A stretch of 56,477 nt of DNA from Candidatus Woesearchaeota archaeon (GCA_018221135.1 JAAOYB010000009.1:1-56477); one strand, 5' to 3'; positions 21,317 to 48,309 are shown, numbered from the stretch's first letter. Numbers and translations: made by a program. Notes: a model not told the origin generated them from the sequence alone.

Positions 21317-21328
21317 AAACTTTTTTTT
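21315..21328. terminator. Putative bidirectional terminator between the convergent recJ-like and giant genes
   Basis: AAAAACTTTTTTTT fills the 10-nt gap between two convergent stops. Confidence 0.5.
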
Positions 21329-24300
21329 ATGTTAGTTCTGTGTAGAAATCAACAGTTGAGTAAACTCCTTCATGATAATCACGCAGAAGAGCCGGGAAGT
21401 AAACTTCGTAATCATAAACTCCGTATTCTCCTACTAAGTCTTGGTTGATTTTTGTTATGAACAGAACATCTTGGCTGCCATCGTATTCTAATCCGCCATC
21501 GCTGTAATCCCATAAAATACCAGTTACGAAATTGTCATTGATGGTGCTGTTAACAATTGCTACGTTACTAAGGTTCTTATAATAAATATTAAAATTGCTT
21601 GTTTGCTTAGGCAAACCACCAAGGGTGTAAGTGGTGTTGACACCATCAACGAAATTAGTCATGTTAAGCTCGGAATCCAACTCTTCAAAATCATTATTAA
21701 GACTAGAACTATTATCAATTCTTCTGCCAAGACTTTGTAAACTACTAAAATCTATGTAGCTACCAGTCTCAACCACGAAGACATTACCTGTAGGGTTAGA
21801 GTAATCCCATCCACTAACTGTTTCATTAGATGCCTTAGCAAGGGTTATTGTGCCACTAACATTGCCAAAAGTCAAACTCCAAGCAGGAACATTAACAGTA
21901 TTATAAGCCTTATTATTAGTTTCGTCAGTCTCAACCACGCTACCATTCGTACTCAGTGGAGGGTCAACAACTACATAAATATCAATCGGGCCGGGTCGTG
22001 AGATAATGAAACTAGTATTAACCGTGGCGTTAAAACCATATCCTAAGTAATTAATTGTTTTATTAACCCCTATTTGGACGCCTCCTAAGTCAGGGTCGCC
22101 ATCAAAGAACTGAACCTTAAAAGGAATAGTTGCATTAACGTTTCCGACATTTCTAATAGTTGCGTTAATAGTTATGTTTTGAGCTTCTCTTGGACTCGAA
22201 TTGCTAAAGAAAATGTCGTTACTAAGTATTTGAAGATCTGGGTTGGTGATGTTAACTGAGTAGTTATTTGATGCCCATCCACTGTTTCCAGCAACATCAA
22301 AACATTGAACATTCCAATTATAATACCCTTCATCTAGGTAAACAGTGAAATTATTTAACACGTCGCTTATAGGAGATGTGTTTGTCTTGTTAGATGCCCA
22401 ACTCCCATTGAAATCTCCCCAGATAGTACAATTATTAAGGTTTGCGTCGTCAGGGATGTATTGGAATGAGACGTCTCCTTTGTTTCTATAATCTTCGTCT
22501 TCAGGGTTGACTAACACAACTGTGGGAGGTGTTAAGTCCTCTGTGTATTTTAGATATATCTGGATGAAATTTGTACCATAGTATTTGTTTGCCGCGTCTC
22601 CTCCTGAATAATACCATCTGGCTCGAAGCTCAATACCATTATTTATTTGATTAACAGTTGGGAAACCTCCTGAGGTCTCATTAAACTCGCATGAAAAAGT
22701 ATCATAGCTTGGAGGTGTTGTATCTGTTAAGGTGGATTGCTGACAAATCTGTTCCCAAGAAGAACTGCTTGTATTGTACCAGTACATTTCATAGAAACCT
22801 AGAGAGTACTCTTGGTATTTTTGGTGTGTTAAATTCATCCAATGAATCGTTGAACCAGCAGTTATACTAGGATTTGAGAAATTAAAATACGCGTAGTCTT
22901 CTGTGTCTTGCTTGTCAACCCAGCTGTGTTCTTGATACAACGAGTCCGAGACATTGATTAATGAAGTGTTGCACGTCCCTGTTTCTTGAGAACAACTAAC
23001 AGGGTATATTTGGGGGTAGAATTCGTTTATGAAAACAGTGAAGTTCCAAGTCTGCGACCACCCAACATGATTTGCTGTGTCAGTGCAACTCACATTCCAA
23101 AGATAAAATCCATTATCAAGTGAGTAAACGTTGAAGAAGTTCTCACCTTCTGTTAATATATCTTTAGAATTATTGAGTGTTCCATTAAGGTATAATGAAC
23201 AATTGCTTACTACTCCTGTGTCTGTGACGTTAAAATAAAGTGTTACGTCTCCATCAATGTCTGTGGACTCTGGAGGTGGACTAGTTAAATTAATAGTTGG
23301 CGCGTAAGTATCATTAACAATTAATACATGTGATTCATAACTCGAAGTATAATTTTGAGTAGCAGGGCTACTTAAGTTTATCACGTATTGACCAGGCGTG
23401 CCAAAAAAAGAATTGTTATTCAAAGGACTAGTACCATTATTGATTAATAAGTCATCGATGTAGAGCAACAAGTAACTCTCGCCTGATACGAGGTACCCTG
23501 TTAGGTTAGCGTAACTTGACTCATTAATTGAATAATCACTGTCTGTTCCGTTAATTAATAAATTAACAGAGGAAGATGCTTTGTTAACGGTGTAGGTAAA
23601 ACTGTTTGTCCAGTTTAAGTTACTCTCGCTGTCGTTTGCGTACATCTTCCAAGAATAAGTCCCTGCAGCGATAGGTCCATAGTTGTAATAATAAATATCG
23701 TCTGTTTTCCCTATTATTGAATAATTGTGTGTTGAGCCGTTGAAGTTGTGCTCTACCCAAACAACGTCTATTATTCCGTTGTCTGTCCAAGAAACATTGA
23801 ATTGGTAGTTTTGTATGGGTGAATAATTAATTGGGCTACTCGGATAAGCAACCGGGTTTGACCAATTCGGTGGTGTTTGATCTGTTTGAGTTGTAAAAAA
23901 ATATTCAATGCTTTGATTTGTGTTACCTGCGGAGTCTGAAGAGTTCACAACGTAATAATAAGTAGTTGAAGGCAAAAGACTAGTAACGAGTACGTTATGT
24001 GAAGTTACTAGTGTTAAATCTGATTTGTTAAGAGTGTAAACACCTGTGATTAGTCCGTATTTTACAAGTGACGTCGCTGGTTCATCAGTAGTCCAGGTAA
24101 TATTAACTGATGAATCCGTTATTGAGACGTTAGCGACATTAGTGATAATGGGTGGTGTTACGTCTCCTGATTCATTAGTAGTCGCGGTGTCATTAGCCCA
24201 AAATCCTTTGTTTCCAAAAACATCTACTGGTCGTAGTTGAATCTCATAAGTCGTGTTAGAAGAGAGACTAGTTGCGTTGTAATACTCGATTCCAGCTGAG

Positions 24301-26597
24301 AGGTTTGTTTTAAACAACCCACTAACCCATACTTCTACGTGGTCTAAATCTCCATAAAACGTGGGGTTCGTCCAATTCCATAAAATCCAGGCTTCTCCTG
24401 TTAGTGTCTCGTTAAGATTAGTAATATTATTAGGTGGCGTTACGTCTTTTACATATATCCAAAGAGTTTTTGACGTCGCCGTGTAGTTTTGATTGCCAAG
24501 ATAAACAGCTGTTACGTTAAGATCTCCATGATTATTATAACTAGAAATATTGATAAGTGGTGATGGACCACTTTGGACTAGTGTGCCGTTAACGTATAAT
24601 AATATGTTTCCTTGTCCAGCAGCGAGCACGGCGGTGATGTTTACGCTTTGAGTCTCATTGATAGTGATGTTGTCTTGGCTTGAGTTAAGATACAAGTTAA
24701 TAACGCTGCTTGCTTTGCTCACAATGTATGTTTGGTTTGGCATAGAGTAATTCCAATTGTTTGAAGTGTCGTTAGCAATCGTTCTCCAAACATAACTACC
24801 AACACCTAAGGCTCCATAGTTGTAATAGTATGCGCTTCCACTATTTCCTGTTATAGGATATTGTTGATAAGTCCCTGTGAAGTTGTGTTCTATTAATACG
24901 GTGTCGACTTGTTCGTTATCAAGCCAAGTAGTGTTGAACTGATAACTAGCACTAGGACTATAAGTGGCTGGGCTTGACGGATTCGTAGTTGGACTTGACC
25001 AATAAGGAGCTATAGTGTCTCTAATTGAGTAATTAATGTAGACCCAGACATGGTCTATGTTACCCGTCGCGGATTTCTGAGCGTCTGTCGTTGCGAGTCT
25101 TATACCAAAAGTGTCATATCTTGATTCATCATCGCTTACTGTATTAAAATATGAGATGCAATCCCATGTGTGATCTAATTCTGATGTGCTCATGGTTTGC
25201 CCTGAAGCTGTTCCCCAAGTATCACTTGAGTAGTTACCAAGCTGCAAATTCCAAGTGTTGCCTTCGCTATCCCACGCTTTTACGTGAATTACGCATTCAA
25301 CTATTTCATCAATAAGATCGGTTTCGTCTGGGAAACTAACTCTTAATGGAGAATTACCATTTCCTTTATCAAAAGGCAAGTAGTTTGTGTCATCGGTTTG
25401 GATGCTTGAGAGCTCACCCGCAGTGCAAGTCGCGCCGGCGTCTTCGTTAAAACAACCATCCGCGTTGTAGGAGCTCTGAGCATACGCAGGGTCATTAGGA
25501 GTGATTGTGATATTATATTTTTCTCCAGGAACCATATCTAGTATTTTATCCCAAGTCCCATGACAAGTCTGAGTTGAGAAATTCCACTCAGCGCACTTAT
25601 ACAATTCATACCCAACAGCTACGAATTCTATGCTGCCATTTACGAAGCTTATTCTTTCAGGATCAATAGCAAAAGCACTTTTTATCCTAACCCCCGGGAC
25701 ATCTGCTTTTTCTACGGGGAGTTCTTCTATACCCAAATCAAAGCCGTTGCTTAAGTTAACATTGTTAAACCTAATTTTTTCTACGAATTTCTTTTTTGGG
25801 ATGAGATCTAATTTTTTGGCGAAGCTATTAACGCTTCTAGCACCACTAAGAAAACTATTGAACTTATCAAATTCATCAATTATAATGTCAGAATCCAAGA
25901 AGTATCCTTTACTGTTTTTTATCTTTGCAGACAAATATGTTTTCTCAATATTACTGAAGTCATTGTTTAAGCTTTGACTAAAATAATAATTACTTATCCC
26001 AAAATTCTTAGGTGTAACGCTCGTTCTTCCTACTGTAAAACTAAGGTTTCCTAATAAAAGATTATTATAATCATATACTAAGACTTCGTATATTCCTTCT
26101 TTGGATGGTACGAAGCGAGTTAGGCTTCTTATATCTCCGAGGAATTTGTAATTTTGGTTATTTGTCTGAATTACTAATGAGCTTATATCATTAGGGTTAT
26201 TTATTGTGATATCAACGTTTTCATTTACCAAGTACCTATTTTTATCTAATCTCACAATATCGTGGTTTTTGTTAGTTGTTCCAACAACAAAGCTTTTATC
26301 TTCGATTAGGGAGTCATCACTGATATTTTTTAATATGATTGAATATTCATCATTGTTTTTTGGAATGAAAAAAACACCGCTACTATAATCACCTAAGAAC
26401 TTGTAATACTCTGTTTGTGAGCTGATAACAAGATACGCGTCTCCGTGATTAATTCCTTCTATTTTTATATTGACAACGTCGTTAACTGAATATGAATCTT
26501 TTTCTAATACCAAAAAATCTGCGTTTACAAAAAAAGAACTAGTTACCACTAATAAAAAAGTCAGTAATAACTTCATACTAGTATTTGTTTTTCTCAT
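21327..26597 (-). CDS. Giant secreted surface protein (1756 aa): shared N-module, FN3-like domains, Cys-pair Ig-like modules, CARDB, shared C-module
   Basis: N-terminal signal/anchor MKLLLTFLLVVTSSFFVNA. Two FN3-like segments (for example ITNVANVSITDSSVNITWTTDEPATSLVKYG). Two W-N-V-x-C modules. CARDB-like segment about 21900-22250 ending in ETDETNNKAYN. Very high density of N-x-S/T sequons. The start overlaps the upstream stop (ATGA). Confidence 0.85.
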   Translation of the reverse strand: MRKTNTSMKLLLTFLLVVTSSFFVNADFLVLEKDSYSVNDVVNIKIEGINHGDAYLVISSQTEYYKFLGDYSSGVFFIPKNNDEYSIILKNISDDSLIEDKSFVVGTTNKNHDIVRLDKNRYLVNENVDITINNPNDISSLVIQTNNQNYKFLGDIRSLTRFVPSKEGIYEVLVYDYNNLLLGNLSFTVGRTSVTPKNFGISNYYFSQSLNNDFSNIEKTYLSAKIKNSKGYFLDSDIIIDEFDKFNSFLSGARSVNSFAKKLDLIPKKKFVEKIRFNNVNLSNGFDLGIEELPVEKADVPGVRIKSAFAIDPERISFVNGSIEFVAVGYELYKCAEWNFSTQTCHGTWDKILDMVPGEKYNITITPNDPAYAQSSYNADGCFNEDAGATCTAGELSSIQTDDTNYLPFDKGNGNSPLRVSFPDETDLIDEIVECVIHVKAWDSEGNTWNLQLGNYSSDTWGTASGQTMSTSELDHTWDCISYFNTVSDDESRYDTFGIRLATTDAQKSATGNIDHVWVYINYSIRDTIAPYWSSPTTNPSSPATYSPSASYQFNTTWLDNEQVDTVLIEHNFTGTYQQYPITGNSGSAYYYNYGALGVGSYVWRTIANDTSNNWNYSMPNQTYIVSKASSVINLYLNSSQDNITINETQSVNITAVLAAGQGNILLYVNGTLVQSGPSPLINISSYNNHGDLNVTAVYLGNQNYTATSKTLWIYVKDVTPPNNITNLNETLTGEAWILWNWTNPTFYGDLDHVEVWVSGLFKTNLSAGIEYYNATSLSSNTTYEIQLRPVDVFGNKGFWANDTATTNESGDVTPPIITNVANVSITDSSVNITWTTDEPATSLVKYGLITGVYTLNKSDLTLVTSHNVLVTSLLPSTTYYYVVNSSDSAGNTNQSIEYFFTTQTDQTPPNWSNPVAYPSSPINYSPIQNYQFNVSWTDNGIIDVVWVEHNFNGSTHNYSIIGKTDDIYYYNYGPIAAGTYSWKMYANDSESNLNWTNSFTYTVNKASSSVNLLINGTDSDYSINESSYANLTGYLVSGESYLLLYIDDLLINNGTSPLNNNSFFGTPGQYVINLSSPATQNYTSSYESHVLIVNDTYAPTINLTSPPPESTDIDGDVTLYFNVTDTGVVSNCSLYLNGTLNNSKDILTEGENFFNVYSLDNGFYLWNVSCTDTANHVGWSQTWNFTVFINEFYPQIYPVSCSQETGTCNTSLINVSDSLYQEHSWVDKQDTEDYAYFNFSNPSITAGSTIHWMNLTHQKYQEYSLGFYEMYWYNTSSSSWEQICQQSTLTDTTPPSYDTFSCEFNETSGGFPTVNQINNGIELRARWYYSGGDAANKYYGTNFIQIYLKYTEDLTPPTVVLVNPEDEDYRNKGDVSFQYIPDDANLNNCTIWGDFNGSWASNKTNTSPISDVLNNFTVYLDEGYYNWNVQCFDVAGNSGWASNNYSVNITNPDLQILSNDIFFSNSSPREAQNITINATIRNVGNVNATIPFKVQFFDGDPDLGGVQIGVNKTINYLGYGFNATVNTSFIISRPGPIDIYVVVDPPLSTNGSVVETDETNNKAYNTVNVPAWSLTFGNVSGTITLAKASNETVSGWDYSNPTGNVFVVETGSYIDFSSLQSLGRRIDNSSSLNNDFEELDSELNMTNFVDGVNTTYTLGGLPKQTSNFNIYYKNLSNVAIVNSTINDNFVTGILWDYSDGGLEYDGSQDVLFITKINQDLVGEYGVYDYEVYFPALLRDYHEGVYSTVDFYTELT

Positions 26598-29500
26598 TTT
26601 ATCTCAGCGTAAAACGCTACTGCGCTAGTGTCTGGTGTTTTGTATTCTCTAAGCGCTGCGGGGACTTTTATCTCAAAATCATACGTTCCGTTAAAACCTA
26701 TTTTGTTTTCGTTAACCTCTGTTACGAATACTAAGTCTTGGGTTCCGTTATACTTTGGTCCGTCGTTTGAATCCCACAAAATCCCAGTCAAAAAATTGTT
26801 GTTTACAGTGCTGTTAATAACAGGCACATCATAGATGGTGCTTGTGAAAATAATGTAGTTCTTAGTGTTTTTTGCGCTGCCGCTTTGCGTGTAAGTATTA
26901 TTTATTGAATCAGTATAATTAGTCATGTTAAGAGCTGTGTCTATCTCTGCGAAGTCATCGAACTCAGAAGAGTTAGAAGTGTTTTTACCAATAGCGAGAA
27001 GGCTAGTCCAAGAAACACTACTATCATAATCAGCTACGAATAAGTTATCACCAGTACTGTTAGCTTTATTCCAACTAAACAAAGTATTATACGCGGAGTT
27101 ATCAATGTTTAATATCGAAGTGGTATTACCTGCGAATACGTGGTGACCACTGATAGTTATTGCTTTGTAAGCCTTATTATTAGATTCGTCACTTTCAGTT
27201 ATGGAACCATTTGATGCGATTGGTGGGTCCACTACAACGTATATCCTGGTGGTGCCCATCTTTGTAGTCCAATTAACACTAAGGGTTTGGTTGCTACCAA
27301 CAACTAAGCTATTGATTGTTTGATTAACCCCTATCTGAACTCCAATGGTGTCAGGGTTTCCTTGCCAGAACTGAACTACGAAGTTATTTGCTGTTGCTCC
27401 TCCAACATTATAGATATTAGCGAGGACTGTTATGTTCTCACCTTCAACAGGATTATTATTGCTAAAACTAATATTGCCTGCGTTTATTACTAAGTCCGGC
27501 GCGGGTACTGTGAAGTTATAAGTAAGACTAGTATTGGTGTTTCCTGCTAAGTCAACACAAGTAACATTCCAATAATGGATTCCTGCACCCAAACCAGGAA
27601 CACTAATATTAGCCCAACTACCACTAGTGATGTTTGTAAATGATTGGTTATTGTTTGAATCAATAGTTAAGTTACAAACTGATAATATTGGTGCCATGTT
27701 ATCACTAACTGTGAAGTTAAAAAACACGGTGTCATTATTTGTTAAGTTATCATTCTCGGGAGCTGTTAGGGTAATACTTGGGAGAACTGTGTCTACGTAG
27801 ATAGTGATTGGTGTAGAGTTATATTTATTAGTTGCTTCGTCTACTGCTTCTAATACTACACTCCAACTACCATTAGTCAAAGCGTTTAGGTTATCACTGT
27901 CAGGCGTGTTGTTATTTGTTGTGCCGCTAGCATTAAGCGTGCTATTAACGTACAAGTAATAATTTAGTACTAAGTCCATGTTATCAGTTACCAAGAAATT
28001 AATAAGTGGAGACGCCGTGTTAAACCAAGACTCATTTTTAGTGGTGATATTGGCAAAAGAAGGGGTTAAATCTATGTATAAGCTTCTGTTCTCATCACCG
28101 AATCCTTGAGAATAAAATGTTGTGTTGTCAAAACAAGTAATGCTCCAATTATAGCTTCCTTCAAAGATTTCGCTAGTAATATTATTAGTGGCGTTATTAG
28201 TTATTTGGCTTCCGGGCTTACTCTGATTAAAGTTTCCATCAATTAATAAGCTGCAATTCTCGATTCCTGTCTCGTCACTTACGTTAAAGTAGAATGTTAT
28301 GTTTCCATCATTAAACCAACTATTTGTTGGAGGCGTGACTAGTGTTATGTTAGGAGCCCTAAACACGTTAAAAGTTTTGGTCTCACTAACATTAAAATTG
28401 GTTGCTTCATCAATGCAGGTCACGTTCCAACTATGAACTCCTTCAAAAAGATTGTTCGCTGTGTGGTTTCCGTAACTATTATTAGAAATGTTCTGTGAGT
28501 AAACTTGGCTTCCATCAAGGGTGATGTTACACAATATCGGGTCGTCCAAGTTGTCAGAGACGGTGAAATTAAGAGTTGCGCTGCTACTAGTAATGTTTGC
28601 TTGGTCGACTGGATTAGTAAGGTTAATGGTTGGTTTTGTGATATCAACTATTATTACAAGAGTATAATTAGCGATGTTATTAGCTTCATCTAATGTCTCG
28701 ATGGTTACGTTATGGTAACCCTCGCTTAATGGCCCGATTGTTTGATTAGTGTTGGTGTTATTAGTTATGTTAGTACTAGTAATAAAGCCTTGATCAACAT
28801 ACAAGGAGTAGTTGATGTTGTCATCTAAGGCATCGGTTATGTTAAAAATAATGTTAGGGGTCGTAGTATTAAACCACGAATTGTTCTCTGCTTGGTAATT
28901 AACCACTGCACTGGTATTATCTATGTACAGTGTGATAGTGTTGGAATCTTTTGTTCTGTTAAGATAATCAGTTACTCTAATAGTAATTAACCTAATGCCT
29001 TCGTTTAGAGTTGAGAGATTTAATAATTGGGAGACATTATCAGTTACGCTTCCATTTTGCCCATTAGGCACTCCGTTAACTAAGACCGAGTAATTAATGC
29101 TACTATTAGTGTAGTCATATAATGTGAAGTTAATAAGTGGTGTTAAGTCACTAGTCCAAGTAGGGCTAGGGGGGCTTGTCAGATTAGCCCATAAAACGCT
29201 TATATTGATAGTCGCGTTATTATTAGAGTAGTTAGTCTCGAAGACTCCTAAGTCTGGGTTGACAACGCCATAAATAGAATAATAACCTTGATTTATAATC
29301 CATGTAGTGTTGACTGTGTTTGTCTGCCCAGGACTAAGTGACAGGCTTATATTATTTCCTATCTGGACCCCTATTCCAGGTGGTCCTTGCCAGAACTGAA
29401 CTAAGAAGTTACTACTACCAGAAGCCCCGTTGTTTGTTACGTTAAGATAAATCGTTAAGTTCTCACCTAAGTCTGGGTTGCTGTTATTAAACCAAATCCT

Positions 29501-32500
29501 AGTATTATCTGTGTATAAATCAGGTGCTTCCACGGTGAAATTCCAAGTAGAGGTGGTGTTGTAGTTTCCAAGGTCATCCCAGCAAAGCAGACTCCAATTA
29601 TGCGAGCCATAAACAAGGCCGTACACGGTGTGATTATGATAATCTCCGCTACTAAAATTAAGGTTAGTCGCGTTAACTGCTCCATCAACTGTTAAGTTAC
29701 AATAAACTATGCTTGACCAAGTATCATTAGCTGTCCAATTAAAATTCACGTTCTCGGTAGGAACAGTGATGTTGTCCCCGGGGTAGGAGCGGTTTATGGT
29801 TGGGGGGTACAAGTCAACTATCAATGTTTTTGTTGTTTGATTGGTTCCTTCTAATCCGTATGCGTCTGTGCAGTTAACAGTCCAATTATATATTCCATCA
29901 GCGAAGTTGTAAGCAGTTATGTTATTCTCAACTCCCACACTTATGTTGTTGTTAGTCTCATTTCTTAATCCGTTAAGTATGAGTGTGCAGTTGCTTATGT
30001 TATTACTATTATCGTACGGTGTGAAAAAGAAGGTTATGTTCTTCTCATTAGTTCTGTTGTTGTGTTGTGGGTTGCCTAAGTTTATCCTTGGCGGCTCATT
30101 TACTGTGAAGTTATAAGTAAGACTAATATTGGTATTGCTTGCTAAGTCAGTACACGTGGCATTCCAGTAATGCAATCCATCACTAACATTGTACTCTGTG
30201 TGGTTAAAATATGAGCCATTTAACACCACTGTTGGTCCGGCTATTACGTTACTATCAAGACTAATATTACAAGTTGTGTTAGGCGCTAAGTTATCCCATG
30301 CTGTTAAGTTAAAGAGTATTGTGCTAATATTAAAGACGTCGTTATCAGGAGTTATCAAGTTAATAGTTGGGTTTGTTAAGTCCACAGTAAAATTCCAGGT
30401 TTCCGTGCTGTTAACAGTGTTATTATCCCAGTCCGTGCAATCCCAATACCAAGTGTGAAATCCTTCACTAAAACCATTTTCTGTCCAACTATCAATTTGG
30501 TTTGCGTTAGGATACCTCTCTATACTGTAATTCACGCTGCCATCTAGGTATAAATGACAATACTGCAAAGTAAGATTATTATCTTCGGGGAGGTAATAAA
30601 AAGTTACGTTACCTGTGTTATTCCAACTATAAGGAGGAGGAGCGATTAATGTGACTTCTGGAGTGAAACTAACATTGAAGTACCAAGTCTCACTAGTAGT
30701 GCTTAGTTGGCTTGAGTCAGTACACTCAACACTCCAATTATAACTTCCTTCACCAAAATCATAACGGCTAATATTGGTCCAATTGCCACTAGTTGCGTTA
30801 ACAGTTATGTTGAATTTCTCGTTTATGTATAAGTCACAAAGCAAAGTTTGTGTTATCTCATCATACGCTGTGAAATTAAAATTGATAGTTGTTGTGTGAA
30901 TAGTGTCGTTTTCTTCAGGGAAGGTGAGATTAACCCATAACGGCGCGGTTTTATCAACGTAAAACCATTCCAAACTACTATTACCAACGCTGTTATTAAC
31001 ATCAGTGCAGTTAACACTCCAATTATAAAGACCTTCAGCTAAGTTATCCCTGGTAAAATTACTAGTGCCCCCATTAGTTATGTTAATAGTGCCTTGTGTG
31101 TATTGATAAGCATCGTTAAGATATAATGAACAGTTTTGTATTCCTCCAACGTCTGTAGCGTTGTAATAAAAAGTGACGTTCGAATCATTTTTTCCTTCAT
31201 AACTTATAGGTTCTACTAATACAACGTAGGGCTCGATATCCACGCTGAAATTAAGATTAACGCTCGTCCCGTTCCTATTCGCGTCATCTGTACAAGTAAT
31301 ATTATAGTAATGAACACCGTTGGATAATCCACCTACGAACCTAGTATTATTAAATACTCCACTAGCATTAGCAAAGAAAGGACCACTAACCCCATAATCC
31401 GAGATGTTTATAGTACACTCAACGATTTCATCAACGGCGTCGTAAACATTGAATTCAAAAAATAACCACGAATTATAAATAGTTGACGCATTAGGATACT
31501 TGGGAGTAATAAAAGGATCATTAAAGTCTACGCTGAAATTAATAACGCCAGGTTTAGTGCTTTGTGAAGAGTTATCAAAGCACTCAACAGTCCAATTATG
31601 AATTCCTTCTGAGACGTTATACAACGTAAAATTATTAGTGACTCCGCTTGTGATGTTAGTACTGTTATCACTTGGTGCGTCATCTAAGAAAATAGTGCAA
31701 TTAGCAATTCCGCTACTATCAATTGGGGTGTACTCAAAGGTTATGTTCTCAACTAAGACCCAATCCCCTTCTGAAGGGTATTCGAGATTAATAGTTGGCC
31801 CGGCGTTTAAGTGGAAAACCCAAGTACTATTACTAATATTTGTTCTGCCAAGACGATCACTGCACGTAACATTCCAATAATAATCATTATCTGTAAGACC
31901 AAACAAAGTGTAATTTCTAATAGTGTTATTAGGACTTATAATATTAGGATAAAAATCTGAATTAATTCTTAAATCACAACTAAGATTATCTGTTAAGTCA
32001 TCAGTTGCGTTCCACTGAAGCGTTACGGTGCTGCTATTAATTGTGTTGTTATCACCTGGGTAGATTAAGTTAACGTTTGGGTCTGTTTCATCAACCCAGA
32101 AAATCCAATTCTTACTCCAACCAGTACCTGCTCCATTAGTACAACTAACATTCCAAGTATGATTGCCTTCGTTTATATTGGTTACGTTGAAATAGTTGTA
32201 CTGGTTTACTTCGATAGCACTATCATTACCTTTATTGTTTCCGTCTACGTAGATGCTACAATTATCTATTCCTGAGTCATCAGTTGCGTTGTAAGTAAAC
32301 GTGCCGTTTTCGCTTAGGAAGCCACCAGTGTAGTTCTGGGGGTTTACTAATATTGGCAGTGGTGGTCCTTGGACTGTGAAGTTCCAAGTCTGACTGGTGT
32401 CAAGCCATCCCGCGTCATCCCAACAAGTTACATTCCACCAATGCAATCCATTAACAACTGTTCTAATATTAGATTCTATGGTGTTGTTGATTACATCAAG

Positions 32501-35500
32501 GTAGCTAGTGCTATTAATATTAATGCCGTCAATTGTTATGTTACATTGAAGTAATGAGTCAAGATTATCTGTTACTGTAAAATTAAATTCGATGTCGTTA
32601 AATCCAAATATATCGCTGCTATTAGGGTAAAGTAAAGTCGTGTTTGGAGGTGTCAAGTCCACTGTAAAATTTGTGTTCGGGGTTTGGTATGAGTTGTTGA
32701 ATATGTCGCTACAATTAACGCTCCAATAATGCCAACCTTCAAAGATGTTATTTATGCTGAAGTTGTTTAGAGCCCCATTAGTTAAATTAGAGGAGTTTTT
32801 GCTATTGTTATAAACTCCGTCAAGGTAAATACTACAATTGTTTAATCCATGCATATCGTAAGGGGTAAACAAGAAAGTGATATTAGTAGTGTTTGAACTA
32901 TTGCTTTCTTGGGGGTAATCTAATGTTATGTTTGGTCCCGTTGTGTCAACTGTAAAAAGCCAAGTACTACTCGTATTAGTGTTGCTTATGTCTTGCCAGC
33001 AAGTCACATTCCAATAATAATCATTATCAGGAAGGTTGGTAAGGGTGTAGTTTGTTATCTCTCCACTATTAGCAAAAATGATATCGGTGTTATTAACTAC
33101 GCCGTTGAGAGTTAAGTTACAACTAATAGGTCCTCCTCCTTGACTTGTCGCGTTGAACTGAACATCAAAAGTACTAGTAGTCATATTTGCAATATTAGGA
33201 GGATAAATTAGTAATACGCTTGGCGGCGTATTTGAAATCCTTACATAAATAGTATCGTTTCCTTGGTTTGAGACATTATCTAGACAAACAGCGTCAAACC
33301 AGTAAAAACCATCAGTTATCAAAGCAGTATTTGTTGAGCCATTCCATATATAACCACTAACAAAATTAAGACTTCCATTAAGACTAGTTGTTCTAAAACT
33401 ATAATTACAACTACTTATACCATCACTGTCAATAGCGGTAACGTTGATATACTCCCACCCCGTAAGGGTAGGGAATTGCAAAACATCCAACGCGGCGTAA
33501 TCTGAGAAGATATATCTACTACCATCACCAGCACCGTTAGTAGCAGGCGTTGACTCAACTAAGAACCAAACATCATATGATGATGAATTAACAAAATCAC
33601 TAATGTTTCCAGTTACTTGCGGAGACGCACTCACATCACTACTAGTACTGCTACTAGTGTAAATGTTTTGATAACTCCCCGCGGTGAAGTTCCAAACCCA
33701 AATAGTATAGGTATCTGCTCCATCATTAGGTTTTTCTGTGTGGCCATCATAGTTGAATCTTAATGAATAAACAGATGAAGGGCTTTGACCTATCTTAAAT
33801 TTTAAGCTGTGATATGCTTGATTATTATTACCGGTTATGCTATGATTATACTTGCTTTCATCGTTTGTTTCTAAATAAGTATAATTTGCAACGCTTGCTT
33901 CTGTCCCGGTTAATAAAGTTGCGTAAACCTCTGTTTTGACTCCATGATAAGCCTTGTTATTATTATCAGTGTAATCATATGAATTTACATCATAGCTTGG
34001 TTCATTAATAACAACAGTCGTAGTAGCACTTAGATTATATTGGATGTCGAGATATGTGAAGTTGACATAAGTTAAGTTCCAATTCTGTGTTCTGTGACCA
34101 GCGGCTAATAAGTTATCAGTAATCCAAAGACTAACACTGTTAGCTTCGCTATAAGTATTAATCCAACTAGTGAGGTTACATGTATCTACTCTGTTAGTAG
34201 TGCTGGGTGAAAAGCTACATGCAACTTCATAGGCTCCGCTACTACTATTGTATACTTTTATGTAAGTAGTCCAATTATTACTTACTGTCAAGTTATCTTC
34301 TTGGTGTTCGTATCCAAAGATTACTTGGTTAACATCATAACCGATGGGTACGTTGTCTGTGAAGTTAACTTCTATTCTTTCTTCAAGAGGCGTTGGAGTA
34401 TCTCTTTTTAGCACTATGTTTCTAGAAGAATTATCTGTTTCGTTTACTTCACTTAATACATTTAATCCTGTGTTATCTCTATCAGTTAATAAAGCCAAGC
34501 TAGGCCTAAAAATCACAATTACATCTCTTTGAGCATAAAGAATACTACTGTTACTATCATTTATTGTTATCGTGTAATTTCCAGGAACTAAAGTCTGAAC
34601 TGAAGGGATAGTCCAAGGGTCTGAGGTGTTACCTTGTCCTCCAGTACTGATAGGTTTTGGATAGCTTGATACGCTTTGACCTGTGCTTCTTTTTTTGATA
34701 TCAATAGTTATGGTGTTTGTTTGTGAAAACCCAAAACCACTTATTTGAACGATTTCTCCTCTGCTATAATATGTTTTATCTGTTGATATAATTGGTGTTA
34801 CGTTAAAATACGCGGTTTGGCTTGAATAATTAGTATTGCTGCTACCATCTGTTGCCCATACAAAGAAGCTGAACTCACCTCCAAACGTACTTGTGTAAAG
34901 ACAACTCCAAATATCTCCTGAGCCGCTCATAGTGCAGTTCTGCCTAGTCCCATTAGATAATAATATGTCCGCGTTAGCACTTGAGACAGATACGTCGTCA
35001 GTTATGTTAGCTGTTAAGTTAAACACTGTTCCAGAGATATCTATGATTGGAGTGGCGTTCACCCAATTAATAGTTGGGGAGGTGTTATCTCCTATTCCTG
35101 CTACGGAGAAGCTTTGAGTAGGTGTGCTGTTCCATTGACTTTGGCTGTCATTTGCGTAGAACTTCCAATAAACAGTTGTCGCAGCAGGAGCTGTTATGTT
35201 TATTGAATAATTTGACACATTATTTGATGTGAATTGATAAAAGCTTGTGTTCCACCAAGTACCGTTTTGGTTTATGCTAAAAACCCAGCTATCAAGTGCT
35301 TCGTCATCACTCCAAGTACTGTTGAATGTTACGTACATGTTCTGATAAATCATTGATTCATTCTTAGCCCAACTAAGAGGTGTTGGAGGATCACTGTACT
35401 CAGTGTAATTAACTCGAAAGAAAGCAGCGTCAAAAGTCGCTGTTTGTACATCGTTATCGTTTCCTGCGTGAGCTCTTATCACAACATTACTATTTTGCCA

Positions 35501-37648
35501 ACTACTACAATTCCATGAGAAAGTCCCGGTAATATTAACACAACTCACTCCTCCATCACTTGTAGGGCAACTTGAGTCAACGTTTGTAAAAGAACCACTA
35601 ACGCCAGTGATTGAGACATCAACACCGACACAAGTCTTCCAATCTCCACCTATCCACCAATTAGTGCACGCCTCTACTCTTTCTACCTGGGCGCAGTTCG
35701 TTAAAACTTTATTCGCGATTACTCGAACCCCTGCCCACTTATTTCTTCCCGCAGTTACGGTTTCAGAATTACCACCATCAGCGTCTTGGCTGTCAAGATT
35801 AGTGCATGTAGTGTAGTATCTATTATCTTGAGCTTCTGCGTTCATATAATCACATGTTGTGGCGTTTAAATCCCATAATGGGTCTGCTGCTATGTACCAA
35901 GGCCTTGCTTCTACAAAATACTCAGAAGAAGAGTTTATCACGTACCTAATAACTGCTGGGCCAAGCGTATAAAGATCTGGCGCGACTAATGGGGCTTGGA
36001 GCTCGTAATAAACAATTGAATTCGGGCTAATGTTCTCCCAGCGAAGCTCCTTTTTATACCCGACATCAACTACTACTGCGCCTCCTGAATCCACCACGCT
36101 CAAGTTCGTTGGTATTAGTTCTGTTAAGTTAATGTTGCCTGTGTTGTTAATATAAGGAGATATTTCTATGCTAGTAGTAAACGGTCCAAGCCAAGGGTCA
36201 ATTGAGAACGGCACATCCCTGATTATTTCGAACTCGTAGAAAGATTTTACTAAGAATTTAGAGGTCATAGAAGCATTAGTGTTCTGAGCTGTTGCGTAGA
36301 CATATAAAGTATAATTGCCTTGACTTTGGGTGTTGTTGAATTCTGCTTTGTAAACGCCTCTTTCAACTTCCACTACTTTATTAGGAGTAAAAAGAGTATA
36401 AGTCTGATTAGTTGGAGTAGTCACATTTAATGTGATGTTCGCATCTGCGACGAGGAATCCTTGATTATCAACAACTGCGACGTAGATAATCGCGGTTTCG
36501 TTAGGGTAATATATTGGTTTGTGTGTGTTTATAGTTGAGATTCCAGTCTCCGCGAAGCCAGGGTCATCAGGAGTTATTAACAATTCATATTCTTCTCCAG
36601 GTATAAGGTTTTTTATCTTAACCCATTCACCGTAGCATGTTTGCTCGGTGAAGTTCCACGCAGCGCATTTGTAAAGCTCAGAACCAGTAGCCACCAAGGT
36701 TATTGTTGCGGTATCAAAATCTATACTTGTAGGATCCACGGCGTAAGCGTCAACTACGTTCTTGTTTTCTTTCCACGCATCTTGGATTACTTCTTTTCTT
36801 ACCTCCTCAAATCCGAGCTCAGGGTTTTGTGTCCTAATATTTTTAAAAGTGATGTTTTTGACTTTTCTTGAATAATTATGTATTGTTAAATCATTAGTTT
36901 TCCTAAAGAATTTTTTATGCTCTTTGATTTCTCCTGCTACGAATCGAACCCTGTTTTTTGAATCCTTAACCTTTAATGTATCCGTTGCTTTTTTGGTTGT
37001 CTCGGGTTCTTGACTTGCAACAATCGTGTCATCTGGGATGTCTTGTTTTGATGTGGGGGTAATTTGAATAGTTGGGTTGGGGGTGTTTTCTTCTACTTCA
37101 AATCTTAAAGTACTCAAGATGTTGTCATATAAGTCTTTTAGTAATACTAAGTATCCTCCTTTTTGTTTAGGGGTAAACACAACGTTTTTTAATAATCCAA
37201 AATACGTGCTTTGTTGTTTTTCACCAATTACTTCTACTTTGAAATCTTCCTCTGAGATAAGACTAATATTTATTTGTTCACCTAAAGAATACGTTTCTTT
37301 TTCGATATTAGCACTAATATTTTTTGGTTGTTTTTTTACTACTTCAAAAACCTTTTTTTCTAATACAATACTGTCTTGTTTTAGCATCACGGTGTAAGTT
37401 CCTGTTTGCTTAGCATCAAACACCACGAGATGACTTATCTCGCCAGAATACTTATAAACACCGTTAACGGCAAGTATTTCTAAGCTAACCCCTGGTTTTT
37501 TTATTGTTTCTTTATCTAATGTTATGTCGATGGTTTCTCCTAGGGTATAAGAAGATTTTGAGAGGCTTATAAGCTGAGTGTTTTGTGCGCTACTAAAAAC
37601 TACCAAAAACAACAAGGTCACTATAAATAATAGGGTTTTCTTCTTCAT
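26594..37648 (-). CDS. Giant secreted surface protein (3684 aa): shared N-module, about 20 tandem ~95-aa Ig-like modules, two CARDB domains, shared C-module
   Basis: Signal peptide MKKKTLLFIVTLLFLVVFSSAQN. Thirteen consecutive modules at about 29535-33225 follow the pattern P...V.F.....D......C.L.LNG........G..N.....L.DG.Y.WNV.C.D..GN...S.TW.F.VD. CARDB-like segments lie at about 29205-29535 and 27150-27505. There is no C-terminal TM or sorting signal. Confidence 0.85.
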   Translation of the reverse strand: MKKKTLLFIVTLLFLVVFSSAQNTQLISLSKSSYTLGETIDITLDKETIKKPGVSLEILAVNGVYKYSGEISHLVVFDAKQTGTYTVMLKQDSIVLEKKVFEVVKKQPKNISANIEKETYSLGEQINISLISEEDFKVEVIGEKQQSTYFGLLKNVVFTPKQKGGYLVLLKDLYDNILSTLRFEVEENTPNPTIQITPTSKQDIPDDTIVASQEPETTKKATDTLKVKDSKNRVRFVAGEIKEHKKFFRKTNDLTIHNYSRKVKNITFKNIRTQNPELGFEEVRKEVIQDAWKENKNVVDAYAVDPTSIDFDTATITLVATGSELYKCAAWNFTEQTCYGEWVKIKNLIPGEEYELLITPDDPGFAETGISTINTHKPIYYPNETAIIYVAVVDNQGFLVADANITLNVTTPTNQTYTLFTPNKVVEVERGVYKAEFNNTQSQGNYTLYVYATAQNTNASMTSKFLVKSFYEFEIIRDVPFSIDPWLGPFTTSIEISPYINNTGNINLTELIPTNLSVVDSGGAVVVDVGYKKELRWENISPNSIVYYELQAPLVAPDLYTLGPAVIRYVINSSSEYFVEARPWYIAADPLWDLNATTCDYMNAEAQDNRYYTTCTNLDSQDADGGNSETVTAGRNKWAGVRVIANKVLTNCAQVERVEACTNWWIGGDWKTCVGVDVSITGVSGSFTNVDSSCPTSDGGVSCVNITGTFSWNCSSWQNSNVVIRAHAGNDNDVQTATFDAAFFRVNYTEYSDPPTPLSWAKNESMIYQNMYVTFNSTWSDDEALDSWVFSINQNGTWWNTSFYQFTSNNVSNYSINITAPAATTVYWKFYANDSQSQWNSTPTQSFSVAGIGDNTSPTINWVNATPIIDISGTVFNLTANITDDVSVSSANADILLSNGTRQNCTMSGSGDIWSCLYTSTFGGEFSFFVWATDGSSNTNYSSQTAYFNVTPIISTDKTYYSRGEIVQISGFGFSQTNTITIDIKKRSTGQSVSSYPKPISTGGQGNTSDPWTIPSVQTLVPGNYTITINDSNSSILYAQRDVIVIFRPSLALLTDRDNTGLNVLSEVNETDNSSRNIVLKRDTPTPLEERIEVNFTDNVPIGYDVNQVIFGYEHQEDNLTVSNNWTTYIKVYNSSSGAYEVACSFSPSTTNRVDTCNLTSWINTYSEANSVSLWITDNLLAAGHRTQNWNLTYVNFTYLDIQYNLSATTTVVINEPSYDVNSYDYTDNNNKAYHGVKTEVYATLLTGTEASVANYTYLETNDESKYNHSITGNNNQAYHSLKFKIGQSPSSVYSLRFNYDGHTEKPNDGADTYTIWVWNFTAGSYQNIYTSSSTSSDVSASPQVTGNISDFVNSSSYDVWFLVESTPATNGAGDGSRYIFSDYAALDVLQFPTLTGWEYINVTAIDSDGISSCNYSFRTTSLNGSLNFVSGYIWNGSTNTALITDGFYWFDAVCLDNVSNQGNDTIYVRISNTPPSVLLIYPPNIANMTTSTFDVQFNATSQGGGPISCNLTLNGVVNNTDIIFANSGEITNYTLTNLPDNDYYWNVTCWQDISNTNTSSTWLFTVDTTGPNITLDYPQESNSSNTTNITFLFTPYDMHGLNNCSIYLDGVYNNSKNSSNLTNGALNNFSINNIFEGWHYWSVNCSDIFNNSYQTPNTNFTVDLTPPNTTLLYPNSSDIFGFNDIEFNFTVTDNLDSLLQCNITIDGININSTSYLDVINNTIESNIRTVVNGLHWWNVTCWDDAGWLDTSQTWNFTVQGPPLPILVNPQNYTGGFLSENGTFTYNATDDSGIDNCSIYVDGNNKGNDSAIEVNQYNYFNVTNINEGNHTWNVSCTNGAGTGWSKNWIFWVDETDPNVNLIYPGDNNTINSSTVTLQWNATDDLTDNLSCDLRINSDFYPNIISPNNTIRNYTLFGLTDNDYYWNVTCSDRLGRTNISNSTWVFHLNAGPTINLEYPSEGDWVLVENITFEYTPIDSSGIANCTIFLDDAPSDNSTNITSGVTNNFTLYNVSEGIHNWTVECFDNSSQSTKPGVINFSVDFNDPFITPKYPNASTIYNSWLFFEFNVYDAVDEIVECTINISDYGVSGPFFANASGVFNNTRFVGGLSNGVHYYNITCTDDANRNGTSVNLNFSVDIEPYVVLVEPISYEGKNDSNVTFYYNATDVGGIQNCSLYLNDAYQYTQGTINITNGGTSNFTRDNLAEGLYNWSVNCTDVNNSVGNSSLEWFYVDKTAPLWVNLTFPEENDTIHTTTINFNFTAYDEITQTLLCDLYINEKFNITVNATSGNWTNISRYDFGEGSYNWSVECTDSSQLSTTSETWYFNVSFTPEVTLIAPPPYSWNNTGNVTFYYLPEDNNLTLQYCHLYLDGSVNYSIERYPNANQIDSWTENGFSEGFHTWYWDCTDWDNNTVNSTETWNFTVDLTNPTINLITPDNDVFNISTILFNLTAWDNLAPNTTCNISLDSNVIAGPTVVLNGSYFNHTEYNVSDGLHYWNATCTDLASNTNISLTYNFTVNEPPRINLGNPQHNNRTNEKNITFFFTPYDNSNNISNCTLILNGLRNETNNNISVGVENNITAYNFADGIYNWTVNCTDAYGLEGTNQTTKTLIVDLYPPTINRSYPGDNITVPTENVNFNWTANDTWSSIVYCNLTVDGAVNATNLNFSSGDYHNHTVYGLVYGSHNWSLLCWDDLGNYNTTSTWNFTVEAPDLYTDNTRIWFNNSNPDLGENLTIYLNVTNNGASGSSNFLVQFWQGPPGIGVQIGNNISLSLSPGQTNTVNTTWIINQGYYSIYGVVNPDLGVFETNYSNNNATINISVLWANLTSPPSPTWTSDLTPLINFTLYDYTNSSINYSVLVNGVPNGQNGSVTDNVSQLLNLSTLNEGIRLITIRVTDYLNRTKDSNTITLYIDNTSAVVNYQAENNSWFNTTTPNIIFNITDALDDNINYSLYVDQGFITSTNITNNTNTNQTIGPLSEGYHNVTIETLDEANNIANYTLVIIVDITKPTINLTNPVDQANITSSSATLNFTVSDNLDDPILCNITLDGSQVYSQNISNNSYGNHTANNLFEGVHSWNVTCIDEATNFNVSETKTFNVFRAPNITLVTPPTNSWFNDGNITFYFNVSDETGIENCSLLIDGNFNQSKPGSQITNNATNNITSEIFEGSYNWSITCFDNTTFYSQGFGDENRSLYIDLTPSFANITTKNESWFNTASPLINFLVTDNMDLVLNYYLYVNSTLNASGTTNNNTPDSDNLNALTNGSWSVVLEAVDEATNKYNSTPITIYVDTVLPSITLTAPENDNLTNNDTVFFNFTVSDNMAPILSVCNLTIDSNNNQSFTNITSGSWANISVPGLGAGIHYWNVTCVDLAGNTNTSLTYNFTVPAPDLVINAGNISFSNNNPVEGENITVLANIYNVGGATANNFVVQFWQGNPDTIGVQIGVNQTINSLVVGSNQTLSVNWTTKMGTTRIYVVVDPPIASNGSITESDESNNKAYKAITISGHHVFAGNTTSILNIDNSAYNTLFSWNKANSTGDNLFVADYDSSVSWTSLLAIGKNTSNSSEFDDFAEIDTALNMTNYTDSINNTYTQSGSAKNTKNYIIFTSTIYDVPVINSTVNNNFLTGILWDSNDGPKYNGTQDLVFVTEVNENKIGFNGTYDFEIKVPAALREYKTPDTSAVAFYAEIK

Positions 37649-44437: not shown

Positions 44438-44546
44438 AATTTTTCCAACAACAAGATATATGTAAAAAGTATGTAAAACGCTTTTCGAATTTACTTATTT
44501 ATAAAAGTATAGAAAAACATTAAATTATTTGTTTATGATAATTACT

Positions 44547-45212: not shown

Positions 45213-45235
45213 AAAATCACTATGTAAAAATATTC

Positions 45236-48293: not shown

Positions 48294-48309
48294 GGGGATT
48301 TTTATTTAG

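Follow-up and report, generated by a model that had tools for sequence, protein, structure and literature searches.

A pair of adjacent giant genes, A and B, is conserved over hundreds of related uncultured archaea and probably forms long cell-surface attachment fibers. Both proteins carry a signal peptide without a membrane anchor and are built as a head, a sequon-rich rod, and a C-terminal tail with tail-only homologues, an architecture that we state with high confidence. The pair lies in a 56,477-nucleotide stretch of DNA from a Candidatus Woesearchaeota archaeon, all of which was analyzed and which we call the window. We know of no Woesearchaeota in culture.

Results

Organization of the gene pair

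The domain order of A runs from a signal peptide, two small beta domains, and the head through inserts, 22 Ig-like modules, and two CARDB domains to the tail (Table 1). A preliminary description of this DNA had reported open reading frames of 3684 and 1756 residues joined by an ATGA overlap, and both the coordinates and the junction sequence, GAGATAAAATGAGAAAA, in which the TGA of A overlaps the ATG of B, agree with it. The same kind of ATGA overlap, which that description had missed, joins A to an upstream 187-aa ORF that gave only weak matches of the wHTH type and has a paralogue in the window at 42070..42606(-). Homologues of this ORF are found directly upstream of giant1 in loci L004, L007, L010, L012, L024, and L026, and by ORF coordinates the 4-nt overlap with giant1 is also present in L004, L010, and L024. 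As read off the overlaps, the wHTH-like gene, A, and B would be translationally coupled. The window also holds a gene for a KaiC-like ATPase, a conserved neighbor that recurs in 3 of 30 loci elsewhere, and a DUF5752-like-domain protein is encoded near the giants in 11 of 30 loci; both products are cytoplasmic.

Table 1. Positions of the genes, overlaps, and domains in the window
Feature	Coordinates	Strand	Description
187-aa ORF	37645..38208	(-)	cytoplasmic wHTH-like protein upstream of A; TTG start uncertain
Overlap, 187-aa ORF stop/A start	37645..37648	(-)	ATGA
Gene A (giant1)	26594..37648	(-)	ORF, 3684 aa
A, aa 1-196	37061..37648	(-)	Sec-type signal peptide (aa 1-21) and two small beta domains of ~85 aa
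A, aa 223-372	36533..36982	(-)	head block N3, from 44-sequence alignment
A, aa 373-753	35390..36532	(-)	MG2-like domain, further beta domain, Cys-rich insert
A, aa 754-950	34799..35389	(-)	two Ig/FN3-like modules without Cys
A, aa 951-1395	33464..34798	(-)	one small beta domain and ~350 aa of insert domains
A, aa 1396-2706	29531..33463	(-)	14 Ig-like modules in a row, Cys pair, super-period
A, aa 2707-2819	29192..29530	(-)	internal CARDB-like domain
A, aa 2820-3381	27506..29191	(-)	six Ig-like modules
A, aa 3382-3495	27164..27505	(-)	C-proximal CARDB-like domain, 53% identity to CARDB of B
A, aa 3496-3684	26597..27163	(-)	tail, alpha+beta domain, stops at last residue
Overlap, A stop/B start	26594..26597	(-)	ATGA, from junction sequence
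Gene B (giant2)	21327..26597	(-)	1756 aa; A-type head and tail, short mixed core
B, aa 224-378	25464..25928	(-)	head block N3, from sequence comparison and N3 profile
B, aa 379-1448	22254..25463	(-)	core: inserts, two Cys-less Ig modules, duplicated unit, FN3, two Cys-type Ig modules
B, aa 1449-1566	21900..22253	(-)	CARDB domain, Pfam PF07705
B, aa 1567-1756	21330..21899	(-)	tail, from sequence comparison and tail profile

The two proteins share both ends

When we aligned A with B, residues 23-368 of A matched residues 25-375 of B (29% identity, E = 7e-37), a region that takes in the block ELYKCA.WNF..QTC.G.W.KI....PGE.Y...ITP.DP, and the CARDB domain plus tail were likewise common to both (A 3377-3683 vs B 1446-1755; 43% identity, E = 3e-84). 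The shared N-terminal module of ~370 aa with its ELYKCA block and the shared C-terminal module following CARDB, both proposed earlier, are thereby borne out. The small beta ("mm") units in A also occur in its relatives. In the N3 block, the alignment of 44 sequences revealed two invariant Cys residues and the pattern ELYKC..WNF..Q.C.G.W.K....PG..Y....TP.DP. Run against the window proteins, the N3 profile matched A (E = 2.6e-83) and B (E = 5.9e-90), as did the tail profile (E = 2.3e-89 and 1.4e-84, respectively). Just after the head, A carries ~220 aa (within residues 373-753) that are extra relative to its orthologues; a match there to the alpha-2-macroglobulin MG2 domain (PF01835), at residues 375-467, scored 27.2 bits, below the Pfam cut-off of 32.8.

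The preliminary description had asked whether these end modules are ordinary known domains, and our searches answered in the negative. The N3 block found no match in Pfam or among PDB sequences, the tail had no sequence match in Pfam, NCBIfam, or PDB, and profile searches of PDB sequences returned nothing for the tail or for its tail-only paralogues. An AF2 model of the tail gave a confident alpha+beta fold (pLDDT 95.3, pTM 0.89), for which Foldseek found no match in the PDB (best E 0.43, TM at most 0.2). Judged by these searches, head and tail are both previously undescribed, family-specific modules.

Conservation is highest in the tail, with a mean identity of 45.7% among giant1 tails vs ~27-41% for the head block. 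In 149 of 151 proteins the tail lies no more than 2 aa from the C-terminus, and it contains one almost invariant N-glycosylation sequon (NST). It is also homologous to secreted "tail-only" proteins of ~250 aa, which consist of little beyond a signal peptide and the tail-homologous domain (98.8% probability, E = 1.4e-16, in hhalign comparison with the small neighbors). Among loci with enough flank, 18 of 30 have such paralogues within 8 kb downstream. None is encoded in the whole 56-kb window, and the proposed docking partner is thus unseen for this organism.

Export and glycosylation

Both A and B start with a Sec-type signal peptide. As the preliminary description had stated, there is no membrane anchor or recognizable sorting signal: outside the signal peptides we found no hydrophobic stretch in either protein (beyond residue 40, the Kyte-Doolittle mean stays at or below 1.3 in every 19-aa window), and Pfam and NCBIfam returned no sorting-signal family for them. 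The C-terminal ends read ...VAFYAEIK and ...VDFYTELT. We ruled out a PGF-CTERM or archaeosortase substrate, which would end in a PGF motif, a hydrophobic helix, and a basic tail, given no C-terminal hydrophobic stretch and no NCBIfam match.

N-X-S/T sequons are strongly enriched, with 258 in A vs 97.6 expected from shuffles (z = 19) and 85 in B vs 37. Their density per 100 aa in A is 0.9-2.0 in the head (2.0 in the N3 block) and 9.4-9.6 in the rod (9.4 in the run of 14 modules), compared with 0.8 in the neighboring cytoplasmic proteins. This trend was the same family-wide, the density per 100 aa being 2.2 for heads vs 5.9 for cores, and the head was the lower of the two in 82 of 84 proteins. 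We infer that A and B are exported and that the rod is heavily N-glycosylated.

The rod and the stability of its repeat array

With an iterated HMM we delineated Ig-like modules of ~93 aa, 22 in A (two at residues 754-950, 14 at 1396-2706, and six at 2820-3381) and five in B. The earlier count of about 20 modules in A is close to this number; that each has two Cys did not hold, since five of the 22 lack the pair. Both Cys columns are filled in 19 of all 27 modules, 17 in A and two in B. One stretch of A, residues 3298-3381, gave the best match to the bacterial Ig-like family Big_13 (PF19077; 75.1 bits for A, cut-off 27), and the other modules are tied to this one through the iterated HMM. In B, we located the three elements previously ascribed to its core, namely two Cys-type modules (residues 1100-1188 and 1358-1448), an fn3/Pur_ac_phosph_N match in Pfam (820-903), and a duplicated unit of ~95 aa (626-720 vs 1004-1100, 34% identity). 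The CARDB domain of B exceeded its Pfam cut-off (PF07705, residues 1452-1564; 36.1 bits vs 22.7). The two CARDB copies of A, which are 41-53% identical to that of B, were absent from the Pfam results at E <= 0.01; the internal copy, overlooked before, is 43% identical to the second copy of A and 41% to the CARDB of B. No family match was found for the ~350 aa of insert domains at A residues 951-1395.

The preliminary description had further proposed an expandable cassette. At the level of the family, conserved ends around a variable core were indeed found, but an array that is expandable at present was not, as its modules average only 25% identity and orthologues keep their module count. Orthologues at 50-97% identity have equal numbers of modules and align end to end (e.g., L014 vs L016), and B is collinear at 50% identity with giant2 of both L002 (residues 1-1755 vs 1-1746) and L001. 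A canonical giant1 layout of 12 Ig modules, CARDB, six Ig modules, CARDB, and tail occurs in at least five genomes. Within the 13-module run of A, we noted a super-period of four modules, with 35.8% identity at an offset of 4 and 26-31% at offsets of 1-3 and 5.

Giant, repeat-rich genes are a known risk in metagenome assemblies, and a few relatives (L004 and L030) look split into two ORFs, so we weighed whether the giant ORFs and their array could come from collapsed or chimeric repeats or from fused ORFs. The data effectively refute this. Modules are on average just 25% identical at the protein level, no DNA repeats above 80% identity over 92 nt were found, and the tandem repeats that TRF reported, two of ~20 nt, lie near the 5' end of A and outside the array. 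Moreover, the architecture and domain order of A and B recur in dozens of independent assemblies, and B aligns end to end with its orthologues. The stable module number and the lack of DNA-level repeats together indicate that the array is neither an assembly artefact nor hypervariable.

Family and conservation of the pair

The architecture marks out a family of DPANN archaea. The tail profile matched 781 clusters (50% identity), and we confirmed 196 genomic stretches, which in almost every case carry the label Woesearchaeota, Nanoarchaeota, or Pacearchaeota. Head-and-tail proteins range from 748 to 7246 aa, with 0-1 to >20 Ig modules. We defined the family by an N-terminal signal peptide, an N3 block whose two Cys are invariant, and a tail that ends at the C-terminus; A and B have all of these, and the architecture is common to their relatives. 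Among 78 tail proteins of at least 1000 aa, found among the best 150 tail-profile matches plus four of the first search, 49 have the N3 head, and most of the others lack a signal-peptide-like start, i.e., they are apparently truncated at the N-terminus.

Among adjacent giant pairs in other genomes, 16 of 37 overlap by 4 nt just as A and B do. In 41 of 42 cases, the nearest foreign relative of a tail sits in the same gene position, and there was no genome in which a tail resembled its partner more than it resembled a foreign tail. By these comparisons, the A/B-type pair is ancient and orthologous across genomes, not a local duplication.

Discussion

On balance, we favor a reading in which A and B are an ancient, co-translated pair of secreted, glycosylated head-rod-tail fibrils whose tail docks and whose head binds. 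Through the ATGA overlaps, the genes for the wHTH-like protein, A, and B would be kept as a single translational unit, so that A and B would be made together and probably work as a long/short pair. The rod consists of Ig-like, CARDB, and insert domains, and if each domain spans ~4 nm, A would project ~130 nm and B ~65 nm from the cell. The tail would retain the proteins on the cell non-covalently, either via a surface assembly of tail-only paralogues or via tail-tail association, and the glycan-free distal head would be where a partner cell or substrate is bound. The polarity as such, with the tail on the envelope and the head binding, is read from conservation and sequon density and is tentative, somewhat short of probable.

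The opposite polarity, in which the tail lies at the far tip and binds a ligand or host, the fiber is fixed to the archaeon's own envelope by the head region, and the tail-only proteins act as soluble or competing ligand binders, is unlikely but has points in its favor. The head is conserved and glycan-poor, which suits burial in the organism's own surface layer equally well, tail-only partner genes are absent from the window, and the RTX adhesins of Gram-negative bacteria have their retention module at the N-terminus. Across genomes, however, the tail is conserved above the head, which better suits the cell's own components than varied partners, and its strict C-terminal position and the tail-only genes beside the giants suggest co-assembly. 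Somewhat less likely still is that A and B are the two components of the organism's S-layer or of an outer canopy, in which tails, heads, or both would make the lattice contacts, and not discrete adhesive fibers. Archaeal S-layer proteins are secreted, heavily N-glycosylated Ig-like chains and some are two-component, and the A/B-type pair, with its fixed module numbers, is ancient and present almost throughout the clade; yet 3684 aa (up to 7246 aa in relatives) is far above characterized S-layer subunits, a spread from 748 to >7000 aa is hard to fit to one lattice geometry, and the tail-only proteins and a ~320-aa neighbor are better candidates for an abundant lattice subunit.

We consider it improbable that the tail works as a domain for sorting or secretion at the C-terminus, comparable to the T9SS CTD or PGF-CTERM, that some archaeal machinery recognizes and removes. 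Its high conservation, its invariable place at the extreme C-terminus, and the conserved cytoplasmic neighbors (the DUF5752-like-domain protein and the KaiC-like ATPase) fit such a role, but Sec signal peptides are already present at the N-terminus, and no conserved membrane channel or sortase-type gene was seen adjoining tail-bearing genes. The tail, a compact domain of 190 aa whose fold is modelled with confidence, is also much larger than known sorting tags, and because the homologous domain makes up essentially the entire mature ~250-aa paralogue, it is not a mere tag there.

In design logic, the fibrils that we favor resemble bacterial fibrillar adhesins, which include the Gram-positive LPXTG stalk proteins SasG, Embp, and a 7651-aa protein of Mobiluncus and the Gram-negative RTX adhesins LapA and SiiE. 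Common to both are an end anchor, a divergent Ig-like stalk as a spacer, and a distinct terminal binding module, and one module of A scores above the Pfam cut-off for Big_13. Unlike these adhesins, A and B have no LPXTG/sortase signal, RTX repeats, or T1SS signal in Pfam or NCBIfam; their rod carries archaeal N-glycosylation sequons, their ends are family-specific, and attachment would necessarily be non-covalent. An RTX/T1SS adhesin is further set aside by a Pfam search that found no RTX or hemolysin-type Ca-binding family at E <= 0.01.

Among DPANN archaea, the SPEARE proteins of Nanohaloarchaeota (Hamm et al. 2019, as summarized in PMC10266531) span 5,000-9,400 aa and have a proposed role in host contact. 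As that summary portrays them, they share with A and B giant size, a Sec signal peptide, and long Ig-like or fibronectin-like runs, and they are anchored in the membrane by a C-terminal transmembrane region, after which comes a VirB4/TraG-like ATPase domain in the cytosol, and have a VirB4-like ATPase neighbor. Measured against this account, A and B differ in having unrelated heads and tails and forming a coupled pair, and we rejected a SPEARE-type identity, as hydropathy showed no transmembrane segment beyond the signal peptide, including at the C-terminus, and Pfam and NCBIfam no ATPase family.

By analogy only, the chaperone-usher tip adhesin FimH and the TasA/CanA/AbpA fibers have adhesins whose C-terminal domain is homologous to small subunits and joins their assembly. 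The tail of A and B is alpha+beta, unlike the incomplete Ig or jelly-roll domains of the pilin and TasA types. The tail did not match a donor-strand subunit of the TasA/CanA/AbpA kind, as Foldseek of the pLDDT-95 tail returned no hit with E below 0.4 from the PDB, which is expected to include pilin- and TasA-type structures.

To our knowledge, the adhesin-like proteins of methanogens do not occur as conserved coupled pairs. These proteins of Methanobrevibacter and Methanosphaera (PMC11532034), together with other CARDB archaeal surface proteins, are secreted, multi-domain, and beta-rich like A and B; none of them is known to share the head or tail. They are annotated by generic domains only, as are the relatives of A and B, whose NCBI titles read "CARDB domain-containing protein" or "hypothetical protein".

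The giant proteins and their shared ends

The ORFs of the two giant proteins, A (giant1) and B (giant2, directly downstream), lie where the preliminary description had placed them and together occupy 16 kb of a small genome. They are joined by the ATGA overlap claimed for them, the junction reading ...GAG ATA AAA TGA / ATG AGA AAA.... BLASTP recovered both proposed shared modules: the N-terminal one aligns A 23-368 with B 25-375 at 29% identity (E 7e-37), and the C-terminal one, consisting of a CARDB domain and the tail, aligns at 43% identity over 311 columns (E 3e-84). As had been proposed, neither protein has a C-terminal membrane anchor, the sole hydrophobic segment of each being its N-terminal signal peptide. 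Pfam recognized generic pieces only, namely Big_13 (75 bits), CARDB in B (36 bits), fn3/Pur_ac_phosph_N in B, and a sub-threshold MG2. Using an HMM iterated from one module, we found 22 copies of an Ig-like unit of ~93 aa in A and 5 in B. The earlier estimate of about 20 modules of ~95 aa in A was close, but the pair of Cys residues attributed to each is not general, as only 19 of the 27 modules of A and B together have a Cys in both columns.

Features of the window, with coordinates and strand
Feature	Position	Strand	Remarks
tRNA gene, cut by window start	1-79	+	Rfam RF00005, 41.7 bits; uncalled by ARAGORN
Chemotaxis set	107-691 and 43389-56429		CheA, CheB, two CheW-domain proteins, MCP with HAMP, PAS protein; two annotated CheC/CheX genes
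509-aa ORF	3173-4702	-	Weak IgGFc_binding-like match only, E 5e-4, under cut-off
Alpha/beta hydrolase, epimerase, GT4 glycosyltransferase	4767-8194		Adjoin 509-aa ORF
B	21327..26597	-	1756 aa
A	26594..37648	-	3684 aa
187-aa wHTH-like ORF	37645-38208	-	Predicted to be translationally coupled to A
503-aa protein	38400-39911	-	Signal peptide, long coiled-coil-like regions, one transmembrane helix near aa 375-400
702-aa protein	39880-41988	-	~65-aa N-terminal DUF5752-like domain, ~350-aa Pro/Lys/Glu-rich low-complexity linker, C-terminal KaiC-like ATPase (PF06745, E 5e-48)
wHTH-like paralogue	42070-42606	-	4 kb upstream, past KaiC-like gene
Two more paralogous ORFs of chemotaxis set	43389-43892, 44547-45212		~170-220 aa
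HypF carbamoyltransferase	52568-54757		

A and B are secreted-type, anchorless head-rod-tail proteins in which the rod is rich and the head poor in sequons. N-X-S/T sequons number 258 in A, against 97.6 ± 8.3 expected from composition-preserving shuffles (z = 19), and 85 in B, against 37 in shuffles. Their density in A, per 100 aa, rises from 0.9 in the N-terminal domains and 2.0 in the head block to 9.4-9.6 in the Ig arrays, and is 5.3 in the tail. For the family, 84 complete members gave mean densities of 2.2 (head region) and 5.9 (core), and the head region was below the core in 82 of them. Judged by sequon counts, shielding of the rod by glycans and a bare head are probably conserved throughout the family. 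The head core, from a 44-sequence alignment, reads SYAIDP...F..A..T..A.GTELYKC.DWNF..Q.C.G.W.K..D..PG..Y.F..TP.DP.Y.E, includes two invariant Cys, and has no match among Pfam families or PDB sequences.

The module array is old and of fixed length

The Ig-like modules share a mean pairwise identity of 25% and a maximum of 49%. Tandem Repeats Finder reported no repeat inside the array and only two of ~20 nt near the 5' end of A, while the best direct repeat at the DNA level was 80% identical over 92 nt. In orthologues at 60-97% identity, module counts were unchanged. Module divergence, the lack of close DNA repeats, and the orthologue alignments rule out an assembly artefact, and the same evidence, including the module counts of orthologues, rules out recent repeat expansion. 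Within a run of 13 modules, identity peaks weakly at offset 4 (35.8%, versus 26-31% at offsets 1-3 and 5), and this super-period of 4 modules points to an old 4-module duplication. The earlier picture of conserved ends around a variable core applies across the family; the core is not currently "expandable," since the length of each orthologue stays fixed. Giant repeat proteins can thus hold a fixed, orthologously conserved module count and need not be free-running expandable arrays.

Comparison with loci of related archaea (L numbers) yielded a canonical giant1 of 3100-3200 aa (L010, L012, L014, L026, L029) with two small beta domains, the head, a ~160-aa insert, 2 Ig, a ~295-aa insert, 12 Ig, CARDB, 6 Ig, CARDB, and the tail; a variant lacks the CARDB+6 Ig unit (L002, L019, L024). 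Relative to this layout, A carries ~220 extra aa after the head, one additional small domain, and 14 Ig rather than 12. The architecture of B is exactly that of giant2 in L001, L002, and L013 (1729-1764 aa), and B aligns end to end with the L002 protein at 50.6% identity. Minimal family members of 748-897 aa contain little beyond head, CARDB, and tail.

The pair is ancient and probably coupled

The loci retrieved contain 37 adjacent giant pairs, of which 16 overlap in the same way (ATGA/GTGA). When the tails of 21 pairs were compared, the nearest foreign relative sat in the same gene position for 41 of 42 tails, and no genome had a pair of partner tails more similar to one another than to a foreign tail. 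Because the tails group by gene position across genomes, giant1 and giant2 are distinct orthologous lineages that have been kept adjacent. The pair is ancient and, judged by the overlaps, probably coupled in translation. Upstream, the TGA of the 187-aa ORF overlaps the ATG of A (AAATGAAG); homologues of this ORF, whose family signals are weak wHTH-type matches only, lie immediately upstream of giant1 in six loci, and the overlap is identical in three. Its paralogue in the window is 26% identical to it.

Distribution of the family across archaea

We scanned the tail alignment against one genome per GTDB species, which gave 196 confirmed stretches with a best match of 61% identity. Of the 76 loci kept, nearly all carry the label Woesearchaeota, Nanoarchaeota/Nanoarchaeia, or Pacearchaeota, and a few MAGs bear Methanosarcinales or Euryarchaeota labels. 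The window accordingly belongs to a Woesearchaeota-type DPANN archaeon. The giant proteins of L014 (labelled Woesearchaeota) and L016 (labelled Methanosarcinales) are 91-97% identical despite their different labels, which suggests that such bins are taxonomically mislabelled. Record titles of "uncultured Methanosarcinales" or "Euryarchaeota" occur on MAGs with this DPANN-specific pair at L016, L019, L020, L026, L032, and others.

An exhaustive search of the tail profile against 1.84 billion cluster representatives returned 781 clusters at E <= 1e-3, 569 of them at E <= 1e-30, with proteins of up to 7246 aa. The tail ended within 2 residues of the C-terminus in 149 of 151 retrieved proteins, and the head block was present in 49 of the 78 that have at least 1000 aa. 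Most of the remaining long proteins look N-terminally truncated, because their N-termini are not signal-peptide-like. A word-index protein search was insensitive here: the tail alone gave 4 fragments only, and one half of the head and the 44-sequence head profile each gave nothing, a limit of sensitivity given the hundreds of matches from the profile search and genome scan. We found no tail homologue in viral contigs, and an exact-sequence look-up of B returned no record. NCBI names the relatives "hypothetical protein" or "CARDB domain-containing protein," and our literature search found no description of the family. Taken together, the paired giant surface proteins form a genuine family, well conserved and hitherto undescribed, whose two terminal domains are novel and which belongs to the known kind of giant Ig-repeat surface or adhesin protein.

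The tail and its stand-alone homologues

The tail matched nothing in Pfam, NCBIfam, or PDB sequences. AlphaFold2 gave an unusable model from a 6-sequence alignment (pLDDT 36) and a usable one from 62 sequences (pLDDT 95.3, pTM 0.89), predicting an alpha+beta fold of about 11 strands and 3 short helices. Foldseek found no relative of this model in PDB (best E 0.43, TM at most 0.2) or among the viral structures of BFVD, leaving the tail a confidently modelled domain without structural relative in either. Eleven residues, including D71, D76, W131, D132, E165, P169, and E188, are invariant across the 62 sequences, and an NST sequon is nearly so.

Profile-profile comparison showed that the tail is homologous to secreted proteins of ~250 aa (98.8% probability, E 1.4e-16), on which it aligns from residue ~77 through the C-terminus. 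These tail-only proteins, which matched no family or PDB entry, come as two adjacent paralogous types followed by a ~320-aa secreted protein. In 18 of the 30 loci whose flank was long enough, their genes are found no more than 8 kb downstream of the giants; the window contains none. The trio follows the giant pair in many Woesearchaeota (L007, L010, L057, L060, and others; e.g. L057:10759-13302). Its two ~250-aa members have two conserved Cys and end in ...YYFYVEL, the ~320-aa member is Ig-like, and none of the three matched Pfam, NCBIfam, or PDB. The trio may supply an abundant component of the envelope.

Possible role of the pair

Woesearchaeota, which rank with the most widespread of the uncultured DPANN archaea, are assumed to be attached to other cells; to our knowledge, no attachment apparatus has been identified in them. 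The giant pair, which is conserved throughout the clade, is a concrete candidate. In the mechanism we propose, the tail would dock A and B non-covalently, either to one another or to an assembly at the surface that consists of tail-only subunits; the rod would be a fixed-length glycosylated spacer reaching roughly 130 nm in A and 65 nm in B, if about 34 and 17 domains span ~4 nm each; and the head would be the binding end. A broader reading, which we consider possible but rather doubtful, is that the tail is a new fold (new as having no match in PDB or BFVD only) defining an unrecognized surface assembly system specific to Woesearchaeota-type DPANN. In it, an envelope lattice or fibre would be assembled from tail-only subunits. 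The two giants of the ancient pair, one a long and the other a short tether shielded by glycans, would plug into this structure by homologous tails and capture host cells with their bare heads. If true, such a system would parallel pilus-tip adhesins or SLH-type anchoring in an archaeal, non-covalent form.

The same head-rod-tail layout could alternatively be read with the polarity of the giant proteins reversed, with A and B in an S-layer role, or with the tail as a sorting tag. Identity of the tail with a donor-strand or TasA-like pilin is ruled out by fold and sequence evidence, and because the fold test fails, such systems are analogous to A and B in idea only. The likeness to bacterial fibrillar adhesins is one of design logic and does not extend to anchors or signals. 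The nearest DPANN precedent is the nanohaloarchaeal "SPEARE" giants, which are described (PMC10266531) as membrane-anchored and with a VirB4-like ATPase; unlike these, A and B have neither. The tail-only proteins offer a testable link from the giants to possible envelope building blocks, and head and tail supply two unannotated domain families usable as markers.

Other genes of the window

A and B lie among archaeal genes for housekeeping and chemotaxis (NIP7-type PUA, NucS, ThiI, HypF, CheA/B/C/W, MCP). The chemotaxis set of this DPANN-type genome is extensive, which implies a motile, sensing lifestyle rather than that of a purely passive episymbiont.

A link between the giant genes and the KaiC-like ATPase of the 702-aa protein was downgraded, since most matches to that protein cover its DUF5752-like N-terminal domain only. 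In 11 of 30 loci the giant pair is directly followed by a ~300-350-aa protein that has this domain alone, whereas a true KaiC occurs downstream in 3 of 30. The 503-aa protein has no family match. In L004, L005, and L009 its homologues adjoin both the KaiC-like gene and the gene of a KaiC-like/DUF7504 protein of 175-185 aa, an arrangement suggestive of a small, conserved membrane module close to the giants. Because the 509-aa ORF adjoins hydrolase, epimerase, and glycosyltransferase genes, it may form with them a surface-glycan-related cluster.
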